Below, in pieces: positions 5,967 through 60,272 of a stretch of DNA of 64,000 bases (position 1 is its first letter; each line of letters opens with the position of its first letter). Made by a program: the position numbers and the translations under genes. This DNA is from Deltaproteobacteria bacterium. GTDB lineage: Bacteria; Bdellovibrionota; Bdellovibrionia; Bdellovibrionales; JAMPXM01. The stretch lies in the NCBI GenBank assembly GCA_017302795.1, contig JAFLCB010000010.1, forward strand, positions 34,065-98,064, written 5' to 3'. Below the pieces are notes generated by a model, which saw only the letters and a program-made list of their open reading frames with translations, had not been told where the DNA came from and did no database searches.

Positions 5967-7442
5967 ATGTTAGCAGACCGAAGGACTAAAATTGTCGCGA
6001 CTATTGGGCCGGCAGTTCGTGGAAAAGAAAACTTACGAAAAGCGATTGCTTCCGGAATGAATGTTGCGCGCCTCAACTTCTCCCACGGAAATCATGCCGA
6101 CCACTTGCAGGTTATTCAAGACCTTAGGGCGCTTTCAGAGGAAATGCGGGCGCCGCTGACCGTTCTTCAGGATCTACAGGGTCCTAAGATTCGAGTTGGA
6201 CGATTTGAAAATGGTGCCATTGAGATCGAAGAAGGCGAACAGGTCGTCATCACCGTTCGGGATGTGCTAGGAAAAAAAGGCCTGATTCCATCGGATTTCA
6301 AGGCTCTTCCGCAAAGCTGTCAGCCAGGCGGACGGATCATGTTAGATGACGGTCTGCTAGAGTTAAAGATAGATAAAGTCACGACAGACGAAGTTCATTG
6401 CACAGTTATCTACGGCGGCGTTTTGAAGGATCGCAAAGGTATGAACGTACCAGGCGGAGAGCTGTCGGTGGATTGTCTGACGCCAAAAGACATGGCCGAT
6501 CTTGAGTTTGGCCTCAAGCATGACGTGGATTACATCGCATTGAGTTTTGTTAGGCACGGAGATGATATCCGGAAATTGCGCGAACTGATACAGGCCAAGG
6601 GGTCGACTGCTAGAATCGTTGCGAAGATTGAGATGCTTGAGGCGATCGACAACCTCGAAGAAATCGTTCGACTGTCGGATGGCGTGATGGTTGCCCGTGG
6701 GGATCTTGCCGTTGAAATAGGCCAAACTCGACTGCCGCAGATTCAAAAGCAGATCGTGAAACTTTGCAATTCTATTGGCCGTCCCGTTATCACTGCTACC
6801 CAAATGTTGGACTCGATGACCGAGAATCCGAGGCCAACCCGCGCCGAAATCACTGATGTTGCGAATGCGGTTTTGGACGGATCCGATGCGCTGATGCTGT
6901 CGGCTGAATCAGCAAGCGGGAAATTTCCGTTTCGCTGCATTCAGACAATGCACGACATCATTCTCGAGGTTGAACGCAACGGCGACTATTTCTACGATAT
7001 GCGGATGGATGAGCAGTTCTCCTCCGTGGCTGATGGAATAGGTGCAGCAAGCGCGCTGACGGCATTAAAGTTAAACGCCACGGCGATTGTTTGCCTAACG
7101 ACTTCAGGAAAAACGGCCACGATTATTTCAGGCTATCGACCCAAAGCTCGCATCATCGCAGTGACCCATATTTTGCCAACGTTGAATAGAATCGAGCTTG
7201 TATGGGGGATACAAACTTTGAAAATTGACCCCTACAAGTCCTCTGAAGAAGCCATGCAACAGATTGAAAAAATGCTGCTCGAATATGGACTGGTAAAACC
7301 GGGCGATAAAGTCATTCTGACTTTAGGAGTGCCGGTACTCGAACGGGGCACAACAAACGCGCTTCGCGTTTATACGATTGAACGTGAAGACTTTCATCGT
7401 CTTCCTGAGGCGGAGCTACCGACTCGATGTAGGACAATTTAA
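5967..7442 (+). CDS. pyk: pyruvate kinase
   Basis: 491 aa. TKIVATIGPA, MNVARLNFSHG, MVARGDLAVEIG and the C-terminal allosteric domain. Confidence 0.95.
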   Translation: MLADRRTKIVATIGPAVRGKENLRKAIASGMNVARLNFSHGNHADHLQVIQDLRALSEEMRAPLTVLQDLQGPKIRVGRFENGAIEIEEGEQVVITVRDVLGKKGLIPSDFKALPQSCQPGGRIMLDDGLLELKIDKVTTDEVHCTVIYGGVLKDRKGMNVPGGELSVDCLTPKDMADLEFGLKHDVDYIALSFVRHGDDIRKLRELIQAKGSTARIVAKIEMLEAIDNLEEIVRLSDGVMVARGDLAVEIGQTRLPQIQKQIVKLCNSIGRPVITATQMLDSMTENPRPTRAEITDVANAVLDGSDALMLSAESASGKFPFRCIQTMHDIILEVERNGDYFYDMRMDEQFSSVADGIGAASALTALKLNATAIVCLTTSGKTATIISGYRPKARIIAVTHILPTLNRIELVWGIQTLKIDPYKSSEEAMQQIEKMLLEYGLVKPGDKVILTLGVPVLERGTTNALRVYTIEREDFHRLPEAELPTRCRTI

Positions 7443-8425
7443 GTCCGCGTGATCTTTCTGCAAGCGTGGATCAGTTCCCAGTAGGGAAACTGTGTTTCAA
7501 GATCGGCGAGATTGAACGACATCGCGAGCGCGCCGTCGAGGGAGAACTTTTCGCCGACAAGCTTCTTTTCTCCTAGGGAATTGACATCGTCGACGTTGAA
7601 CAGCGAACCAAGATCTCGCATCGAATCATTCTGCATTTGGGTGAGATTGAGTTTTATCTCGCCTTTTTCGTTGGCTTTTCCTTTGCGACCGTAAAACAAA
7701 AGTGCCTTCACGGTTTTCATTTCTTTTTCTTCAATCGAAGTGCGTTTGTCTTCACTCTTGAATAAAAAGTCATTGTAGAAGTCGACAAAACGAACGAGGA
7801 AGTCGGGATTAAAGACGGTGATTCGCTGTTTGCCTTCGCCAAGATCCTCGATTTTTAGATGGCCAAGACCCTGCAGTACTTCCATGAGGGTCTGCATCTT
7901 ATTTGTAGGCTGCTGGAAAATTTGAATTGTGTATTTCCTGAGGGTTCCTGGAGGCACGAGGGTCGCGCCATCAGGTGACTTCTCGCCGTAGATTTTTGCC
8001 ACTGTCGCGAGGATTGCACAAAGGCGTGTTACTGTGTGTGGTGGAAAAACAGCATTCGACTCTTCATCTGACTTTTCGAGTGATTTGATTTTTTGATTGG
8101 CATTACGCAAATGGTTATTAACAGTTCGCATGATCGCTTTCGACCATTCTGGAAAAGTCTTGAACTGCGCATTCAAAGCTTTGAAGGGGAGTTCAATCAC
8201 CGCGGTGTCAGCCAATGCCCGCGCAGACGCAGATCTCGGCTTCTGGTCAAAAAACGCCATTTCGCCAAGCATATCGCCCGGACCCAGTTCGGCGAGTGTG
8301 ATTTCGGAATTTCCTTTTGATTTTAGAATTCCAAGTTTTCCGGACTTGATCACATACATTGCTAGCGAAGGATCGCCTTCGCGAAACAGATACTCGCCTT
8401 TTTTAACAATTCGCGGGTCACCCAA
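7439..8425 (-). CDS. cyclic-nucleotide-binding (Crp/Fnr-like) protein with extended C-terminal domain
   Basis: N-terminal cNMP-binding signature YLFREGDPS...GPGDMLGEMAFF...RSASARA. A possible winged-helix segment (NKMQTLMEVLQGLGHLKIE) is followed by about 130 extra residues. Confidence 0.8.
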   Translation of the reverse strand: MGDPRIVKKGEYLFREGDPSLAMYVIKSGKLGILKSKGNSEITLAELGPGDMLGEMAFFDQKPRSASARALADTAVIELPFKALNAQFKTFPEWSKAIMRTVNNHLRNANQKIKSLEKSDEESNAVFPPHTVTRLCAILATVAKIYGEKSPDGATLVPPGTLRKYTIQIFQQPTNKMQTLMEVLQGLGHLKIEDLGEGKQRITVFNPDFLVRFVDFYNDFLFKSEDKRTSIEEKEMKTVKALLFYGRKGKANEKGEIKLNLTQMQNDSMRDLGSLFNVDDVNSLGEKKLVGEKFSLDGALAMSFNLADLETQFPYWELIHACRKITRT

Positions 8426-8511: not shown

Positions 8512-9687
8512 CTAAGGCTTGAATTCCAGATCGGCGCGCATCAGACGGCCAGAATCAGTTCCAAAGTAAATTTCGCCGCTCGGTGTTTCACCGACGGATC
8601 TGATTCGCTCTCCCAGATTATCAAACACGCGGGTTTCCGTAGCAGCCGAATAGTTGGAGGGCTCTTTTTTCAATGAAACGATATTTAAATGCTGAAGCAC
8701 CAACGCGCCAATTAGGAGATGGTCTTTCAGTTTTGGATATTTCTTGCCAGAGTAAAAGTGCAGCGAACTAGGAGCGATAGATGGAACATAATACTTCACA
8801 GGATCCTGAATCCCGTCTTTAACAGGCTTGCTACTGATCGACGGACCCCAGTATTCGCGACCATAAGAAACTAGCGGCCAACCATAGTTGAGTGTCGGTT
8901 TCACATGATTGATCTCATCGCCGCCCCGTGGTCCGTGTTCGACGACAAACAGATCACTAGTGGACGGATGGATTGCTATGCCTTGCGGATTGCGGTGGCC
9001 AAAACTGTGAATCTCAATCAAAGCGCCGGGAATCACTGGAGCACCGTTAAAGGGAGTGCCATCCAGTTTTAAGCGGAGTACCTTTCCCCAGTGTTGTTTT
9101 AGGTCTTGAGCGCGCTCGCGTTCGTTTCTCTCGCCGAGGGAAAGGTAGAGTGAACTGTCTTTGTCGATTTTGTCGATTTTGTCGATAGCAATCCGCGAAC
9201 CAAAATGTTGACCCGAATCGACAGCCGGCTGAGCTTCAAATATCCGCTTTAGATTTTCTAGTCGGCCTGTGCTTGAGTTTCCTACCCATTCACCTCGGAA
9301 TAAGCCGGTTGTCTGTCCCTCGTCTCGTTCAGCTTCGGTGCCTTTTTCAGGTCGTACAGAAGCCGTCAAATAGATCCAGGTCTTCGAATTCGCTCGGTGA
9401 ATTCTAAGATCCAACAATCCGCCTTGGCCCAAGGCGATCACTGGTGGCGCGCCAGGGATCTGTCTTATTGCTTTAGTCTTTAGGTTGAGGTGATGAATTT
9501 CACCCGACCTCAAAGTCAAAAGGGCGTGATCCTCATCGAGAAAGTCAAAACCCCAGATGACGTCCTTGAATTTTGAAACCTCAACAGCCTTGGCGTCGAT
9601 TTTCCCTGGGTCGGCGAGTGCAGAAAATGGTTTTGAAAACAAAACTAGAACGAAGGAAACAACAACGAGGCGAGTGATCGCTTTCAT
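8512..9687 (-). CDS. PQQ-dependent (soluble) sugar dehydrogenase, YliI/sorbosone dehydrogenase family
   Basis: Signal peptide. HFGSRIA, FGHRNPQGIA, EHGPRGGDEIN and NYGWP beta-propeller motifs. Confidence 0.8.
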   Translation of the reverse strand: MKAITRLVVVSFVLVLFSKPFSALADPGKIDAKAVEVSKFKDVIWGFDFLDEDHALLTLRSGEIHHLNLKTKAIRQIPGAPPVIALGQGGLLDLRIHRANSKTWIYLTASVRPEKGTEAERDEGQTTGLFRGEWVGNSSTGRLENLKRIFEAQPAVDSGQHFGSRIAIDKIDKIDKDSSLYLSLGERNERERAQDLKQHWGKVLRLKLDGTPFNGAPVIPGALIEIHSFGHRNPQGIAIHPSTSDLFVVEHGPRGGDEINHVKPTLNYGWPLVSYGREYWGPSISSKPVKDGIQDPVKYYVPSIAPSSLHFYSGKKYPKLKDHLLIGALVLQHLNIVSLKKEPSNYSAATETRVFDNLGERIRSVGETPSGEIYFGTDSGRLMRADLEFKP

Positions 9688-35791: not shown

Positions 35792-36319
35792 TTAACCGGA
35801 AGTTTCCCTGCGGTCGCTAAGAGCAAGGTCTTCTTCATGAATGCGAAACGCAAGGATTCCGATATTCAATAGTCCCCAGATCGCGGAAATTTGCCAGAAT
35901 CCGAATATCATCGGTACGACGAAAATCTCGCAGACAACTAAAGCATAGTTTGGATGTTTGATGAACTTGTAAGGACCAGTTTTCCTTAGAGGTGCACCTG
36001 GGAGCGAAATGATCTTGGTTGTAAAGTAGCTTCCGAGTGTCACGAGTATCCAAGCTCGAAATGCGGTCAGGATCGCAAAAAAGGTCAAATACATCGCCGA
36101 GATTTCGACTGCAGGATTTTGTAAAATCAAAACGAGAATCGCCACAATCCAGGTCGTGTGAAGTGCCACGATGAGTGAATAGTGTTTGGGCGAAAATTCC
36201 TTTCCACCAAGCGAAACTAGACGTTTTGTGTTTCGATTTGCCCACCAAAGTTCGACAAGCCGCTGGGAAATGATAAAAGCCATAAGGCCTAAAGCTGGAA
36301 TACTGAGTTCCATGCTCAC
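35792..36319 (-). CDS. isoprenylcysteine carboxyl methyltransferase (ICMT)-family membrane methyltransferase
   Basis: 175 aa with several TM helices and GPYKFIKHPNY (GxYxxxRHPxY-type motif). 4-nt overlap with the upstream type III PKS gene, as in bpsA-bpsB and srsA-srsB pairs. Confidence 0.75.
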   Translation of the reverse strand: MSMELSIPALGLMAFIISQRLVELWWANRNTKRLVSLGGKEFSPKHYSLIVALHTTWIVAILVLILQNPAVEISAMYLTFFAILTAFRAWILVTLGSYFTTKIISLPGAPLRKTGPYKFIKHPNYALVVCEIFVVPMIFGFWQISAIWGLLNIGILAFRIHEEDLALSDRRETSG

Positions 36320-37398
36320 GTGCCTTCCAAAAGCGTCATCGCCGTTGTGAATCCAGGGCCAAATGTCGACAAAAGAGCTCGTCCCTTAAGTCCTTCGTCC
36401 ATGGCTTTTTCAAGAACAAACAGGACAGTGGGTGCCGACATGTTGCCAAAGTTTTTTAGAATTTCACGCGATTCTTTCATTTGGCCTTCAGGCAACTGAA
36501 ATACTGACTCAAGTTCATCTATGACTTTTGCGCCACCGGGGTGACTGAGGAAGTTTTGTATATCAGAAAGTGCCAGTTTTTCTTCATCCAAAAATAAGTG
36601 CATCACTGGTCGAAAATCATTTTTAACAAGACCCGGAATTTTTCGAGAAAAAATAACTTTCAAGCCTTCGTCCGCAACGTCCCAGCCCATGATATCTAAG
36701 GAGTTCGCCCACCGATGTTCAGTTTGTGCTGATACACATAACCGGTTAGGCCCATTCGCCGCGAGATCTGAGGACTGGATAACCGCAGCTGCGGCGCCAT
36801 CAGCGAATAGCGCCGTCGCGATGATATTTTGTTTTGATAGTTCGTCGCGCATGAAATTGAGCGTGCAGAGCTCGACGACGAGAGTAAGAACCGTCCGTCC
36901 AGGTTGGGAGGCGAGTTCGGCTGCGCGATTGAGTCCGATCAATCCACCAGCGCAACCCAGTCCAAAAATCGGCGTGCGGCGAACATTACTTTTAAAAGGG
37001 ATTCGGTCCATCAATTGGGCTTCAAGGCTGGGCGTTGAGATCCCGGTGGTCGACAACATCAAGATGTCGGTGACGTCTTGCGGGCCGACCGATGCTTTCT
37101 TCATCGCTTTTCGCGCTGCTGTTTCAAGTAGATCCAATGATGTACTTACGTAGACAGCATTTCGGTCAGTCCAGGTGTGTTTTTCAAAAAACCAACTCAA
37201 TGGCACTGCAGAGTAACGGGACTCAATTGCGGTGTTGATGAATGCATTTTTAAAGGGCGAAAGGTCTTGACCGCGTTCGGCGAACAACGCTTTAGCCGCA
37301 TCGTAAACATCTAACTGCAAATGTTTGTAAACCGGGACTGCCGACGCCACAGAACGGATGACCGGTCGGTCCATCGATCGAGTTGTTTCTACTGACAC
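36316..37398 (-). CDS. type III polyketide synthase (chalcone/stilbene synthase family)
   Basis: 360 aa. Cys-His-Asn triad contexts FGLGCAGG, FLSHPGGAKV and NFGNMSAPTV, plus C-terminal FGPGFT. Confidence 0.9.
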   Translation of the reverse strand: MSVETTRSMDRPVIRSVASAVPVYKHLQLDVYDAAKALFAERGQDLSPFKNAFINTAIESRYSAVPLSWFFEKHTWTDRNAVYVSTSLDLLETAARKAMKKASVGPQDVTDILMLSTTGISTPSLEAQLMDRIPFKSNVRRTPIFGLGCAGGLIGLNRAAELASQPGRTVLTLVVELCTLNFMRDELSKQNIIATALFADGAAAAVIQSSDLAANGPNRLCVSAQTEHRWANSLDIMGWDVADEGLKVIFSRKIPGLVKNDFRPVMHLFLDEEKLALSDIQNFLSHPGGAKVIDELESVFQLPEGQMKESREILKNFGNMSAPTVLFVLEKAMDEGLKGRALLSTFGPGFTTAMTLLEGT

Positions 37399-54046: not shown

Positions 54047-55033
54047 TTAAGTAAGTGCGGTCTCGAGGGCCTTAATATCTGCAATTGAATTCAATCCGAA
54101 CACCTGTGCTCGATCGCCAGCAATTTTTTTCGCCAAGCCCTGCAGCACCTTGCCAGTCCCGCACTCAACGAACTTAGTAATCCCTCGATGAAGCATCTCT
54201 TCCTGGCATTGAGTCCAGAGTACTGCACCAGAAATTTGACCAATTAATCTCTCGCGGATGACGTTTGCATCTTTCGACGACTGTGCATTCAAGTTTTGAA
54301 TGACATCAAACTTTGGACTAGAAAAAGAAATTCCTTCAAGCACTGTGCGCATCGCGTTTTCTGCCGGCTTCATTAGCTGACAATGAAAAGGGGCTGATAC
54401 TGAAAGAGGAATAAACTTTGGTTTGCCGGAATCAGGACCAAGCTTTTCAGCCAGCCATTCCGCTTTGGCGTTGGCCCGCATCCATTCAACTGCCTTCGCT
54501 GAACCACTGACCACGACCTGCCCAGGGCAATTGAAATTCGCCGGCTCGAGGGGTGTCTGGTCCGATGCAGATTCGACCTCTTTACAAAGCTTGCGAGCCA
54601 TTTCATCTGTCATGCCGAGAACAGCGCACATGGCACCCTCGCCAACGGGAACAGCTTTTTGCATTTCTCGGCCGCGCTCGCGAACGGCCGCGATCGCCTC
54701 TGGAAAAGCAAGAACACCTGCGTGCACAAGAGCCGCGTATTCACCAACGGAGTGCCCGCACGATGCGGTAATTTTTAAATCAATAAGCTCGTGAACTACT
54801 TTTTGTGTCACTGTTGATACCAAAAGCAAAGCCGGCTGAGTGTTCTCGGTCATCTGAAGGTCCGACTCGGGACCTTCGAAGCAGAGCTTTTTCATATCAG
54901 TTTTTAAGCGTTCGCTGGCTTCCTCAAACAAAAGACGAGCTGTTTGGAATTCTTCGAAAAGAAACTTTCCCATACCGATCGTTTGACTGCCTTGCCCGGG
55001 GAATAGTGCTCCCCACGCGTTCGATTGACTCAT
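54047..55033 (-). CDS. fabD: malonyl CoA-ACP transacylase
   Basis: 328 aa. FPGQGSQ and GHSVGEYAAL (active Ser). Confidence 0.92.
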   Translation of the reverse strand: MSQSNAWGALFPGQGSQTIGMGKFLFEEFQTARLLFEEASERLKTDMKKLCFEGPESDLQMTENTQPALLLVSTVTQKVVHELIDLKITASCGHSVGEYAALVHAGVLAFPEAIAAVRERGREMQKAVPVGEGAMCAVLGMTDEMARKLCKEVESASDQTPLEPANFNCPGQVVVSGSAKAVEWMRANAKAEWLAEKLGPDSGKPKFIPLSVSAPFHCQLMKPAENAMRTVLEGISFSSPKFDVIQNLNAQSSKDANVIRERLIGQISGAVLWTQCQEEMLHRGITKFVECGTGKVLQGLAKKIAGDRAQVFGLNSIADIKALETALT

Positions 55034-55050
55034 TTCTATGACTCCAAAAT

Positions 55051-56130
55051 TTAGAATTTTAAGAGCAAGCTTCCAGATGTAAGGCCCGATCCAAAGGCCG
55101 TCAAAAGGACGTTATCTCCACGTTTAATTCGACCGTCGCGGATAGCTTCATCAAACGCGATTGGAACTGTTGCGGCGCTTGTGTTTCCTGTTTCATCAAC
55201 ATTGATGACGACTTTTTCCGCCGGGATCCCAAAATGTTTACCGACCGCATCGATGATCCGAAGATTGGCTTGGTGCGGGATCAACCATTGAATTTGATCC
55301 ATTACGAGCCCGTTTGCGTCGAGCGCCTCTTGGCAAACATCTGACATCGTTCGCACTGCGTGTTTAAAAATCTCGCGCCCTTTCATCGACAGGAAATTGA
55401 ATCCGCTTTCGATAGCTTCAACGCTCATTGGAATAGCCGAACCTCCAGCTTTCAGCATGAAGAGCTCCCCAAGGCTTCCATCGGCTCGCATGTGCACACT
55501 GTACACTTTAGAATCCGATTTCGGCTCTGCTCGACTTGCGATAACCGCACCGGCACCGTCACCAAACAGAATGCAAGTTTCACGATCTTTGTAGTTTACA
55601 AAGGGATGAAGAACTTCTGCACCGACGACTAGTACGTGCTTGTAAAGTCCGGTGCGAATAAATTGATCGGCGATTCCTAAGCCGTAGACAAACCCCGAGC
55701 AGGCAGCGTTCAAATCAAAGCTCATTACATTGCGCGCACCGAGCTTGTGCTGCAAAACACAAGCTGTCGAAGGTGTCGGCTGATCGCCGCTCACAGTGCA
55801 GAAAATGATCATATCAATATCTTGAGCGCTAAGACCGGCAGCCTCAAGGGCCCGTTGAGAAGCAATCAACCCGATGTCACTTGTAAATTGCCCTTCAGCG
55901 GCGATGTGACGGCGTTTAATTCCTGTGCGCTCAACAATCCATGCATCGTTAGTTTCAACCATTTTCTCGAGGTCGGTATTGCTCAAAACCTTTTCTGGAA
56001 GATAAGAGCCGGTACCACTGATGCGCGTGTAGTAGGGCGTCTCAGCAGGCCTCCCGACAGCATGCCGGATTTTTCCTGCTGAAACATTCGTCGGGACCGA
56101 GGCTTTGGGATCAGAAGCAATGGTTGACAT
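55051..56130 (-). CDS. fabH: beta-ketoacyl-ACP synthase III, with about 35-aa N-terminal extension
   Basis: AACSGFVYGL (Cys), PHQANLRII (His), GNTSAATVP (Asn). The ATG at 56130 is preceded by AAAGGA. The listed ORF starts at GTG 56187. Confidence 0.9.
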   Translation of the reverse strand: MSTIASDPKASVPTNVSAGKIRHAVGRPAETPYYTRISGTGSYLPEKVLSNTDLEKMVETNDAWIVERTGIKRRHIAAEGQFTSDIGLIASQRALEAAGLSAQDIDMIIFCTVSGDQPTPSTACVLQHKLGARNVMSFDLNAACSGFVYGLGIADQFIRTGLYKHVLVVGAEVLHPFVNYKDRETCILFGDGAGAVIASRAEPKSDSKVYSVHMRADGSLGELFMLKAGGSAIPMSVEAIESGFNFLSMKGREIFKHAVRTMSDVCQEALDANGLVMDQIQWLIPHQANLRIIDAVGKHFGIPAEKVVINVDETGNTSAATVPIAFDEAIRDGRIKRGDNVLLTAFGSGLTSGSLLLKF

Positions 56131-56186
56131 AAATCGCCGTCCTTTGGTGTAAGCCCGCAATATAAAGCGACTCTCGCTGCAATTCA

Positions 56187-56282
56187 CATCGCTCCGTGGC
56201 GATGTGGATGATCAGTCATCGCTCCGTGGCGATGTGGATGATCAGTCATCGCTCCGTGGCGATGTGGATGATCAGTCATCGC
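56187..56282. repeat. perfect 30-bp tandem repeat, 3.2 copies
   Basis: CATCGCTCCGTGGCGATGTGGATGATCAGT occurs at 56187-56216, 56217-56246 and 56247-56276, with CATCGC again at 56277-56282. Each unit contains the inverted repeat CATCGC/GCGATG. Confidence 0.98.
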
Positions 56283-56311
56283 CAAACATTACGACACGCA
56301 GTCGACGCAGA

Positions 56312-56344
56312 AAAACCTCCCGGCTAATCTAGCGAGGAGGTTTT
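56312..56344 (-). terminator. rho-independent terminator downstream of rpmF
   Basis: AAAACCTCC pairs with GGAGGTTTT around a 14-nt loop. On the minus strand the stem is followed by TTTTTC. Confidence 0.75.
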
Positions 56345-56389
56345 CAAATTTCTCTAAGTCGCGGCTAGGTAAATTGAAAGGTTCAATAC

Positions 56390-56569
56390 CTAGTTTTTTG
56401 CGACCACAACTTCTTCACCTTTGTAGTAGCCGCATGAGCTACAAACAGTGTGAGGAAGTTTTAGCGAACCGCAGTTAGCACACTTATTAGTCGTCTTTGG
56501 GACTGCGAAATCGTGCGAGCGACGCATGTCGCGCTTCGAGCGAGTAGTCCGTTTCTTGGGCGTTGGCAT
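56390..56569 (-). CDS. rpmF: 50S ribosomal protein L32
   Basis: MPTPKKRTTRSKRDMRRSH...CANCGSLKLPHTVCSSCGYY. The listed ORF is extended upstream to 56647. Confidence 0.9.
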   Translation of the reverse strand: MPTPKKRTTRSKRDMRRSHDFAVPKTTNKCANCGSLKLPHTVCSSCGYYKGEEVVVAKN

Positions 56570-56863
56570 AGTGACTCCGTAAATAGAAACAAGGGGCCTT
56601 ACAAACAAGGGGCCTAAAATACCTGATGAAACCATAAAATCAAGCATTTAGACCGGTCCAAGCGGGAATAGCTCCAACCTATGTCCAAACTTGAGGCATG
56701 TGCTCATCATTTTTTGGACAGGTGGCAGTCTCCCGTCAGACGATTTACGTCAGATCGAACCATTTCGATTTGGGACGGCGCGAATCTTTCAATAGGTGTT
56801 CATTAGGTGAATCCGTGAAGAATGACGGGTCCGCTCGACTATAAAATTTTAAGGAGCCTTTAA

Positions 56864-57358
56864 ATGATCTCAACAAACCGACATGTGTTTGCAGCTACCG
56901 CGACAATGCTTTTAGGCCTCGCGCTGGTAGTACCGATGAGTTCGTTTAGTGCCGCTTATCCCGCCGCCTATCCCACTGAGGAAAAGGCAGCGCGAGGCCC
57001 TGCAGGGGCAGAGATGGATCCAGTCACTAAAGCCCTCTACCAGGCATTGGACGAAAGAGCACGAAGCCAAAGCGATTTCGAACGCAATGAAGCGGCTGGG
57101 CGCCCAAAGGAGAACGGAACCAAGAAGCAGCTTCGGATCGAGCTGGGAGATGAACTTGGCGGCGGAGTATATTCGAATGATCGACGTGAGCGTTTCGCAG
57201 TTCGACAGCAAGAACGGGATAAGGAGTCCGAAATTCCGACCATCGAATCGAAATTAGATGCAGAATCTCGAGAAGTTCGTTCGCAAATTCGCAACGAAAG
57301 AAGCGAGAACCGGCGCCGGGCCAAATCGTCACGCCGTGGACACTGGATCGACGAATAA
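56864..57358 (+). CDS. hypothetical secreted, highly charged protein
   Basis: AAGGAG RBS. 164 aa with a signal peptide and an Arg/Glu-rich C-terminal half. Confidence 0.55.
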   Translation: MISTNRHVFAATATMLLGLALVVPMSSFSAAYPAAYPTEEKAARGPAGAEMDPVTKALYQALDERARSQSDFERNEAAGRPKENGTKKQLRIELGDELGGGVYSNDRRERFAVRQQERDKESEIPTIESKLDAESREVRSQIRNERSENRRRAKSSRRGHWIDE

Positions 57359-57360
57359 AG

Positions 57361-58317
57361 TTATTTTATCGCGCGAATCTGATTGGCCACTAATCCAGTG
57401 GCTGCTTTGTTTCCTGACCAAGCTCCATAGCTAGCAACAGTCACCAGCGCCGAAACACTGAGGTTTTGTTTTTTTGCGGTCGCAAAATGAGCGGATTTTT
57501 CAGCCCACTTGTATCCGTTTGCAATCGGGGAGCGAAGCTTCAAAGCGAAAAGCGAATCTCTAAGAGCTAAACCTTGAAGCGACTCAAGAGTGTCTAGTTG
57601 CGCTTGAAATGCTGCTTTCGACTGCGGCGGAAATCCCGACGGAAAAAAGCCCGTTCCTTCTTGGCGATTCAAGGCCTCGTTGAGCCATACATCTGCCGTT
57701 TTACCCAACCCCGGATTAACTAGCAACTGGCCAATCCAATAGGCCGCAGCCGCGGCCTGCACTCGCTGGTGGGTGACCCACGATTTCATTTCTTCGCCGT
57801 TCCATCGACGCTCTCCGAGGAGGGACCGCGAACTTCGGAGGGACGCTTCGAGGCGGGGACTGAGGCGAGCGAGGCGGGCGGCCCGGTCTTCAAATTTTGC
57901 ACTTCTCAACATCAAAACTGAACGAGCGTAAAGCCCAAGAAAATGGGAAATTTCGACTGTTTTTGAATCTCCGAAAGAACCATCATCGCCCATTCTTGCG
58001 AACGCCCATTCGAAGGCCATAATTCCGCGATCGATGATGAAACCATTTCCCAGCGCGACTCCTGCTCGGATCCAGTTCCATCCTTCAAGCTGGTGACTGA
58101 CTAAGACGCGATCTGGAAATCGCCGATTCAAACCGAGCGCGCCGTCGCCAGCAGGGCGCGCCAATGGATTGATTTTTTTTGCGATCTGCTGCAGCTGAAC
58201 GTTGGCTCGCCAAAGCTTGATTTCATCTGTTTTCAAGCTCGCGGCCATGGAATCGTCGGGAGCTGAAGCGCAATTGAATGCAAAAACTAAAATCAAACAT
58301 CCGACCAGAGATTTCAT
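57361..58317 (-). CDS. hypothetical lipoprotein or secreted helical protein
   Basis: 318 aa. N-terminus LILVFAFNCAS (lipobox-like). ATGA overlap with the upstream recombinase gene. No family recognised. Confidence 0.6.
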   Translation of the reverse strand: MKSLVGCLILVFAFNCASAPDDSMAASLKTDEIKLWRANVQLQQIAKKINPLARPAGDGALGLNRRFPDRVLVSHQLEGWNWIRAGVALGNGFIIDRGIMAFEWAFARMGDDGSFGDSKTVEISHFLGLYARSVLMLRSAKFEDRAARLARLSPRLEASLRSSRSLLGERRWNGEEMKSWVTHQRVQAAAAAYWIGQLLVNPGLGKTADVWLNEALNRQEGTGFFPSGFPPQSKAAFQAQLDTLESLQGLALRDSLFALKLRSPIANGYKWAEKSAHFATAKKQNLSVSALVTVASYGAWSGNKAATGLVANQIRAIK

Positions 58318-58856
58318 AGAATCAACTTTCGTAGTTCTTGCTGCGAATAAACATAGTCGGCATAAATCATCGTATTTGTGATGTTGCGATGTCCGAGCGC
58401 GACCTGCACTAAGCGAAGATCTTTGGTCTTACGGTACAATCGAATAGCGAAAGTGTGGCGAAGTGCGTGAAACTTCTTTCCCGTTGGTCGGTACCAAACC
58501 CAAACTTGGCGAAGGCGATGATACCCAATCGGAAATAAATCTCCAGATGCCCCGGATACATGTCGATCCGAATACTCTCTTAGTCTTTCGAAAAGCCATG
58601 GAGCCAACGGGAGTTCTCGATCATTGGAACCTTTTATTCCGCGAATGAAAAGTGTTTTGTCGTAGGGATTTATATCCACTTTTCTTAAACCCAAGAGCTC
58701 GGTCGCGCGCGCACCAGTTTTTAACGCCAACCAAATCAATAAGACGTCGCGACTTTCCTCAGCAGGCCCTCTGCCCAGTAGAGCTTCGAGGCGCTCTACT
58801 TCGGGATCCAGAAGGTATTTGTTCTTATTTAGAGCATATCGTGTCGACGTTGCCAT
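58314..58856 (-). CDS. small tyrosine recombinase, catalytic domain only (FimB/FimE-like size)
   Basis: 180 aa. TGARATELLGL (Arg I), HALRHTFA (H-x-x-R) and LGHRNITNTMIYADY (His/Tyr nucleophile). No N-terminal core-binding domain. Confidence 0.8.
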   Translation of the reverse strand: MATSTRYALNKNKYLLDPEVERLEALLGRGPAEESRDVLLIWLALKTGARATELLGLRKVDINPYDKTLFIRGIKGSNDRELPLAPWLFERLREYSDRHVSGASGDLFPIGYHRLRQVWVWYRPTGKKFHALRHTFAIRLYRKTKDLRLVQVALGHRNITNTMIYADYVYSQQELRKLIL

Positions 58857-59615: not shown

Positions 59616-60272
59616 ATGGATTTGCGAACTGAAGTTTCACCAGATACACACCCAGAAGCGCCAGCAGAAGTACCATTCGATGTGCCATTGGCAGAGGGGG
59701 CCTCATCACCACCTGGCTTCCAGCGAGCCAGATCGAGCCTTCGCCAGCGATATGAAGCAGAGGCTAGGGTCATCGAAAAACGATTGGGCGGCTTGGAATC
59801 CGTTCGGGAATCACTCGGTTTAAGCCAAAGGAAGATGGCGCAACTGCTTTTAGTTGATCCTTCGGCATGGACCAGATGGACAAGCGGGGATACAGCTCCG
59901 CCTCATGTTTGGCGTTCCCTCGCTTGGTACTTAGCACTTCAAGATAAATATCCAGCTTTGGACGCAGCATTTTGGCTTCAAGGCGTTGCACGAGCGGCGG
60001 ATGGTGATCGAATTTCTCAAAACGCAGACGAAATTCGGGCTGGGCGACTTCAAACGCGCAGTCTTGAACTCAAAGTCCAGGAACTGATGAACGAACTCGA
60101 AAGCCTGAAAGCTCGCTCAAAGGACTCAACCGCAGGACCATCGGGCGAACTCGATGAAACACAGCAAAAGGAACGACGCGCTCAGGTAGAAACTCGGGCG
60201 CTAGCCAACTTTTTTCTTGCTGTCACATTCGCGGCGCTCGGCTATGTGATCGCGGTCTATTTGGCGAAGTGA
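59616..60272 (+). CDS. tail-anchored XRE/MqsA-like helix-turn-helix protein
   Basis: 218 aa. HTH segment LGLSQRKMAQLLLVDPSAWTRWTSGDTAPPHVWRSLAWYLAL, a coiled-coil (LELKVQELMNELESLKA) and a C-terminal TM helix (FFLAVTFAALGYVIAVYLAK). Confidence 0.65.
   Translation: MDLRTEVSPDTHPEAPAEVPFDVPLAEGASSPPGFQRARSSLRQRYEAEARVIEKRLGGLESVRESLGLSQRKMAQLLLVDPSAWTRWTSGDTAPPHVWRSLAWYLALQDKYPALDAAFWLQGVARAADGDRISQNADEIRAGRLQTRSLELKVQELMNELESLKARSKDSTAGPSGELDETQQKERRAQVETRALANFFLAVTFAALGYVIAVYLAK

Follow-up and report, generated by a model that had tools for sequence, protein, structure and literature searches.

In Escherichia coli, FadR activates the fatty-acid-synthesis promoters of fabA, fabB and fabHDG from a dyad that abuts the -35 element and is centred near -40, and fabH is the first gene of a regulated operon downstream of rpmF, with plsX lying between rpmF and fabH. 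Short inverted repeats, conserved among related species, are also the operators of FapR (Bacillus), FabT (Streptococcus), FabR/DesT (gamma-proteobacteria) and FasR (Streptomyces) in fab-cluster promoters, and the genes for these regulators usually lie within the cluster or next to it, the regulators themselves controlling several targets. Class II and class III (tandem-site) promoters of the CRP-FNR type combine a 14-bp site, exemplified by the 5-4-5 FNR box TTGAT-N4-ATCAA and canonically centred at -41.5, with a weak -35 and further sites about three helical turns upstream. Promoter repeat polymorphisms of the contingency or VNTR kind, as in Neisseria, Haemophilus and mycobacterial MIRU loci, consist of perfect head-to-tail promoter units in strain-variable number; classical contingency loci have units of 1-9 nt and switch frequently and reversibly.

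Here we describe three identical 30-bp units upstream of fabH in 64 kb of Bdellovibrionales DNA (hereafter the window, meaning the whole stretch that was analysed). As in the FadR-activated promoters, a dyad that would bind a regulator abuts the -35 position of a fatty-acid-synthesis promoter, and fabH is the first gene of an operon downstream of rpmF; however, the motif is unrelated, one to three reiterated sites take the place of one, plsX is missing between rpmF and fabH, and no FadR-type gene was identified here. The site is a short inverted repeat conserved among related species, as are the operators of FapR and its counterparts, whereas no transcription-factor gene was found in or beside the fab cluster, and a search of the 64-kb window and ~60 kb of clade loci for a second palindrome site, which could mark a further target, gave nothing above chance level. 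To our knowledge, the core TCGCC-N4-GGCGA is unlike the published consensus sites of FapR, FabT, FabR/DesT and FasR. The locus shares with CRP-FNR-type promoters the 14-bp 5-4-5 geometry and would resemble them in its predicted centre at about -43.5, its weak -35-like hexamer and its additional sites about three turns upstream, but its half-site sequence differs, its centre is 2 bp off the canonical position (within the uncertainty of the inferred start), and no CRP/FNR-family regulator was identified in the window.

Unlike the repeats of Neisseria, Haemophilus and MIRU loci, the unit here is long (30 bp) and carries a complete, putatively protein-binding palindrome, so that variation would add or remove whole operators while the -35/-10 spacing stays unchanged. 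Sister lineages have also retained arrays of two or three units, stable across a divergence of 0.23-0.28 substitutions per site, in contrast to rapidly switching loci. Literature searches returned nothing on Bdellovibrio fab regulation or on comparable arrays. We regard the array as a genuine cis-regulatory element with strain-level copy-number variation, and not as a new kind of system.

The rpmF-fabH locus

The features of the locus, all on the minus strand, are as follows.

56390..56569, minus strand: rpmF, ribosomal protein L32 (59 aa), translation MPTPKKRTTRSKRDMRRSHD...
56308..56345, minus strand: intrinsic terminator of rpmF, GAAAACCTCCTCGCTAGATTAGCCGGGAGGTTTTTCTG; RNA folding gives a 10+4 bp hairpin followed by a U-run
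56277..56283, minus strand: GGCGATG, an orphan right half-site that precedes the first full unit
56247..56264, minus strand: distal palindrome copy, CATCGCCACGGAGCGATG, predicted centre about -103.5
56217..56234, minus strand: middle palindrome copy, predicted centre about -73.5
56187..56204, minus strand: promoter-proximal palindrome copy, predicted centre about -43.5
56184-56285, minus strand: listed open frame MAMTDHPHRHGA(x3)M, in which the repeat open reading frame (MTDHPHRHGA)x3-M occupies 56184..56279 and is judged to be a by-product and no gene
56182..56187, minus strand: weak -35-like hexamer GTGAAT, with a 17-bp spacer; it shares one base with the proximal palindrome, the last of the latter
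56159..56164, minus strand: predicted -10 hexamer TATATT, at the same 22-nt offset in relatives
56140..56144, minus strand: Shine-Dalgarno sequence AAGGA of fabH; AAAGGACGnCGAtTTATG is conserved in cluster-1 relatives
55051..56130, minus strand: fabH (359 aa, ATG at 56130), first gene of fabH-fabD-fabG-acpP-fabF

The minus-strand gene order is rpmF, fabH, fabD, fabG, acpP, fabF, rpiB, glyA. FabH-based searches assign the window to an uncultured lineage of Bdellovibrionales, and the FabH sequence has an exact match on record (MBN8541698.1, a 359-aa ketoacyl-ACP synthase III, from a MAG labelled Deltaproteobacteria). An exact-sequence look-up of the L32 protein found none on record; the protein matches the L32 of L001 at 100% identity, and the orthologous genes carry a Pfam Ribosomal_L32p call. 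Downstream of the last palindrome, the fabH leader runs through 22 nt, TATATT, ~15 nt and AAGGA to the ATG at 56130. The terminator hairpin that an earlier note on this DNA had placed between rpmF and the array is there, as a strong hairpin and T-run at ~56308-56345, and it occurs at the same place in all cluster-1 relatives.

The same note described the array as occupying the slot where plsX normally sits, a framing that proved misleading. L32 is encoded directly upstream of fabH in 73 of 81 Bdellovibrionales loci, including complete B. bacteriovorus genomes, and since the rpmF-fabH gap in all 73 measures only -3 to 692 nt, too short for plsX, none of them has the gene in between. Thus, the absence of plsX between rpmF and fabH is a trait of the whole order Bdellovibrionales and is unrelated to the repeat. 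A plsX remnant was likewise rejected, given the order-wide adjacency and a spacer with no protein-like conservation; a motif test, itself weak, found no PlsX-like signature in the window.

In the nearest lineages without the palindrome (L176-L180, L004 and L006), rpmF and fabH are separated by 24-36 nt and are presumably co-transcribed. The clade with FabH at least 86% identical seems to have acquired the module of terminator, operator and promoter by insertion or innovation. FabH of this clade also carries an N-terminal extension of ~30-35 residues before the conserved core (YTRISGTGSYLP), variable in sequence and length; the extension (residues 1-35) is absent in B. bacteriovorus-type FabH, and alignments begin at query residue 33.

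Other parts of the window held several features that we record in their own right. A minus-strand gene at 7439-8425 encodes a 328-aa protein with an N-terminal cyclic-nucleotide-binding domain, the only such protein in the window, followed by ~240 residues without a Pfam match; a search of it for a helix-turn-helix gave no match. At 35792-37398 on the minus strand, a chalcone-synthase-like type III polyketide synthase (360 aa) and, after it, a methyltransferase of the ICMT family (175 aa) form a pair of the kind usual in the synthesis of alkylresorcinol or alkylpyrone lipids. The minus-strand open reading frame at 8512-9687 contains an in-frame tri-peptide repeat, encoded by three perfect 9-bp tandem copies (TTTGTCGAT; 9160-9186, Tandem Repeats Finder score 54).

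A perfect 30-bp repeat carrying a palindrome

Tandem Repeats Finder, run on the 64-kb window, reported an array at 56187-56282 with a period of 30, 3.2 copies, 100% matches and a score of 192 (consensus CATCGCTCCGTGGCGATGTGGATGATCAGT), bearing out the first description of a perfect 3x30-bp repeat between the rpmF terminator and fabH. It is the sole long perfect array in the window, where the 30-mer occurs three times against zero expected from shuffles. The internal inverted repeat noted earlier in each unit, CATCGC/GCGATG, is present in all three; as CATCGC-N6-GCGATG it is confined to them within the window, against 0.22 occurrences expected.

Read on the coding (minus) strand, each unit consists of the palindrome CATCGCCACGGAGCGATG followed by a 12-nt spacer, ACTGATCATCCA. 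The palindrome has the dyad form CATCGCC-ACGG-GGCGATG, with arms of 7 bp in relatives and 6 bp in the window, and its core is of the 5-4-5 type, TCGCC-ACGG-GGCGA. The centre, ACGG, is not itself palindromic and is invariant, an uncommon property in a simple dyad operator. In its 3' part the spacer reads CATCCA in the window, L171 and L185, but not in L001, L172 or the single-copy lineages.

We consider it not likely that the array is an assembly artefact, a possibility raised when it was first described, although the count of three is assembly-based and should be read as such. Three independent short-read assemblies of the same species all break exactly at the last 30-mer of the array, and simulation of a k=31 (unitig) graph predicts a break there only at 2.2 copies or more, with read-through at 1.2 copies. 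That the assemblies break as simulated, and that relatives have two- and three-copy arrays at the same pitch, speaks for a real array.

Conservation of the palindrome across lineages

We gathered orthologous rpmF-fabH spacers through genome contigs and exact-protein look-ups. The core TCGCCACGGrGCGA lies upstream of fabH in every lineage with FabH at least 86% identical, and in no relative with FabH at most 82% identical; a metagenome scan with FabH found no close relatives (best match 78%). The comparison of copy number in relatives that the earlier note had proposed returned one, two or three copies per lineage, at a pitch of 30 or 32 bp. Three copies at 30-bp pitch are found in the window and L171, two at 30-bp pitch in L172/173/175 and L185/186, two at 32-bp pitch in L001/L085, and one in L181/L183, L082-84, L166-170, L002 and L003. 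The single copy of L181, L082, L166, L002 and L003 has the proximal copy of the window as its orthologue. The orphan half-site also occurs in the single-unit allele of L181/L183 and, with a homologous spacer, in L185/L186.

Conservation is concentrated in the palindrome. Across eight lineages, anchored on the proximal copy, the mean pairwise identity of the 14-bp core is 0.98, compared with 0.74 for the -10 hexamer, 0.61 for the 22-nt spacer between them, 0.30 for the 40 nt upstream and 0.33 for the 29 nt downstream. The fabH-fabD coding DNA of the compared lineages is 0.23-0.39 substitutions per site apart. Within the arrays of L171, L001, L172 and L185, the palindromes are identical or one base apart, while the inter-copy spacers have diverged in sequence and kept their length (12 nt; 14 nt in L001). 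Palindromes that are kept while spacers drift at constant length are the mark of selection on each palindrome copy and on the pitch.

Other short motifs are repeated between rpmF and fabH in further lineages: GAATTCG four times in the predicted 5' leader of L166 (1437-1498) and twice in the spacer of L014 (3937-3960), and, in the spacer of L005 (385-418 and 350-374), three copies of GATGTGGAAC at a 12-nt period together with two of ACTrTGTGATCA. It may be that repeated sites in front of fabH recur across Bdellovibrionales.

A predicted promoter for fabH

Because a conserved rpmF terminator lies just upstream, the fabH operon needs a separate promoter. The palindrome points to where it may be: the distance from the proximal 18-mer to a -10-like hexamer (TATATT, TATAAA or TAAATT) is exactly 22 nt in 10 of 10 lineages, and the offset holds in L002 and L003 although the 22 nt themselves have diverged. 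The -35 position is occupied by GTGAAT or GTGCGT, of which GTGAAT matches at three of six positions, and this poor -35 accounts for a canonical sigma-70 scan calling no promoter on the minus strand. Taking the start as 7 nt after the hexamer, we infer that fabH transcription begins at about 56152 +/- 2, which puts the site centres at about -43.5 (+/- 2), -73.5 and -103.5 in the window, and the second site of L001 at -75.5. The fabH promoter is thus predicted to be independent of rpmF and factor-dependent. Two other candidate elements were rejected, namely a sigma-54 promoter formed by the palindrome and TTGC, whose GG/GC spacing is off by one in a hand alignment, and TTGCAG as a -35, which lies only 12 nt from the -10.

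On these grounds we think it fairly probable that the array consists of three identical operators for a putative dimeric regulator at an independent fabH promoter. Of the possibilities put forward in the earlier note, a reiterated regulator-binding site is supported: orthologous promoters contain one to three copies of the palindrome, which is conserved and stands at a fixed distance from a -10-like element.

Copy-number history of the array

A neighbour-joining tree built from 1.9 kb of fabH-fabD places the multi-copy lineages in a single clade (78% bootstrap) that sits within the single-copy ones, so the duplication is old and has been retained. The tree joins as sisters the window and the two-copy L172 (98%), and likewise the three-copy L171 and the two-copy L085; on this topology the third copy has been gained or lost more than once.

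The units of the window itself look young. They do not differ from one another, and each has a derived G->A change at the inner stem position, whereas the orphan half-site retains the ancestral G, and identity together with a shared derived base marks them as very recent copies of one another. Same-species contigs from other samples, L181 and L183 (98.7-98.8% fabH DNA identity), run from rpmF to fabH with a single unit that carries the same derived A. The contigs of L081, L182 and L184, the three broken assemblies described above, start exactly at the last 30-mer of the array, for which the simulation implies at least 2.2 copies. Within the species (fabH DNA identity 98.7-100% among these contigs), the assembly-based copy number is therefore one in L181/L183, at least two by implication in L081/L182/L184 and three in the window. 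Thus, the 3x30-bp repeat is a young amplification, specific to this strain, of a palindrome of 14-18 bp that is itself conserved, and the window strain, so far as the assemblies can be read, apparently expanded very recently from a one-unit allele that persists in the species. The one-unit allele contains a 6-bp direct repeat, GCGATG, at a distance of 30 bp, which the orphan half-site provides and which can be a ready substrate for slippage. The proposal of a slippage-prone variable spacer finds support in this respect, with copy number varying between lineages and apparently within the species.

A rival view is that the extra copies have no effect on regulation: a single conserved site would do the work, and the added units of the window would be passenger products of slippage. 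The complete identity of the three recently derived units, the one-unit allele in the same species and the mechanical route to duplication offered by the GCGATG direct repeat all fit it. However, sister lineages 0.23-0.28 substitutions per site apart keep the exact distal 18-mer while their spacers drift, which implies purifying selection on additional copies and on pitch, and added sites for a DNA-binding protein beside a promoter are unlikely to be silent. We consider neutrality an unlikely account of the extra copies.

Other readings of the array

Slightly less probable still is that the palindromes act as RNA hairpins, either in rpmF read-through transcripts or in a long fabH 5' leader, where as stabilisers, processing sites or protein-binding stem-loops they would tune the fate of the mRNA and not its initiation. 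Each unit can form a 6-7 bp stem, the invariant ACGG would suit a loop-specific RNA-binding protein, and the region folds far better than shuffles (z = -5.2), but low fold energy is expected of any repeated palindrome. The pattern of substitution argues against a selected stem: four kinds of stem-pair-breaking substitution occur and none is compensated, with three pairs varying only by breaking and zero pairs changed on both sides. Additionally, a strong terminator precedes the array, and the fixed 22-nt distance to a downstream -10-like hexamer would be meaningless for an RNA element. No Rfam match at E <= 1 was found within 55000-57500.

We give very little weight to other DNA-level roles, in which the array is the target of a small tyrosine-recombinase-like protein, a nucleoid or DnaA-type site, or part of a dispersed or mobile repeat. 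A recombinase target is suggested by a gene 2 kb upstream and syntenic with rpmF-fabH that encodes a Phage_integrase domain (58314-58856, 180 aa), but this gene keeps its synteny throughout the order, also in lineages that lack the palindrome, and a typical recombinase core site is longer than 7-bp arms around a 4-bp centre would allow. The spacer-palindrome junction TCATCCACA fits eight of the nine positions of the DnaA-box consensus, yet L001 and L172 do not conserve it and single-copy lineages lack it. A dispersed repeat is contradicted by the palindrome occurring only at fabH, with no other copies in the window or in 180 loci; a search of 2.9 million viral contigs gave three isolated, chance-level matches, and a plasmid search gave no palindrome match.

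Some observations on these features stand apart from that question. The junction TCATCCACA (window 56265-56285 and each spacer-palindrome junction) also contains GATC. The 180-aa protein at 58314-58856 (minus strand) consists of the Phage_integrase catalytic domain alone and is found at 72-92% identity upstream of rpmF-fabH in many Bdellovibrionales, an odd gene for a housekeeping neighbourhood. On the plus strand, 59616-60272 encodes a 218-aa protein with an XRE-type helix-turn-helix (HTH_31) and a C-terminal hydrophobic helix, which looks like a membrane-anchored regulator; as the cognate regulator of the array it was rejected, having no specific link to it and being syntenic also in palindrome-less relatives.

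The least probable reading by our estimate, that the array encodes a His-rich leader peptide, (MTDHPHRHGA)n, coupled through ATGTGA to an N-terminally extended FabH, can be dismissed on cross-lineage frame analysis: the frame is open in the window, L171 and L172, each repeat spans exactly 10 codons and, in the window, the stop codon shares bases with a GTG that is in the fabH frame, but four single-copy lineages have GCGAAG and no ATG, L001 is frame-shifted by its 14-nt spacer, the peptide ranges from 0 to 31 aa with no conserved sequence, its HRHGA segment is dictated by the palindrome read in frame, the SD-like GGAG stands only 2 nt from each ATG, the GTG extension is out of frame or stop-interrupted in six of eight lineages, and the conserved Shine-Dalgarno sequence and ATG of fabH lie instead at 56140-56144 and 56130. 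The observations behind the proposal were accurate, since the open frame, the FabH frame initiated by GTG at 56187 (378 aa) and the GGAG 2 nt before each ATG all exist as described; what the comparison leaves unsupported is the coupled leader peptide, neither frame being conserved across lineages. We interpret both the repeat frame and the GTG-extended FabH as by-products of a 30-bp unit with an ATG-containing palindrome.

Discussion

We return to the reading that we prefer, in which the array is a set of operators at the fabH promoter. Under this model, transcription of rpmF would end at its intrinsic terminator, and fabH-fabD-fabG-acpP-fabF would use its own promoter, with a decent -10 (TATATT) and a poor -35. 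The 5-4-5 palindrome would abut the -35 position, with further copies 30 bp (about three helical turns) upstream on a similar face of the helix; the 30-bp pitch corresponds to 2.86 turns, which is not an exact multiple of the helical repeat. Regulator dimers may occupy the palindromes, probably cooperatively, and so set transcription of the operon, the upstream sites contributing cooperative occupancy or extra contacts with polymerase. The position at about -43 and the weak -35 lead us to lean slightly towards a class II or tandem-site activator over a repressor that occludes the -35. Copy number would shift by replication slippage or unequal recombination between 30-bp units, with whole operators being gained or lost.

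A more specific proposal is possible, and we hold it only tentatively: the palindrome could serve as operator for a new regulator that controls fatty-acid synthesis in Bdellovibrionales and may be an activator of the class II type acting on a 5-4-5 site; gain and loss of units, to one, two or three within a single species, could tune membrane-lipid synthesis heritably; and the window strain could have rebuilt by slippage the three-site layout that L171 has long kept.

These findings have consequences for annotation, as neither the repeat open reading frame nor the long FabH start should be called, and the missing plsX is no local deletion. Additionally, the 18-mer provides a short and concrete DNA bait for a putative regulator of membrane-lipid synthesis in predatory Bdellovibrionales. 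The lineages, which differ in the number of putative operators (one, two or three) while the pitch is fixed, constitute a natural allelic series in which operator number can be compared with promoter output. If the tentative proposal above is true, natural gain and loss of 30-bp operators would act as a heritable gain control on membrane-lipid synthesis.
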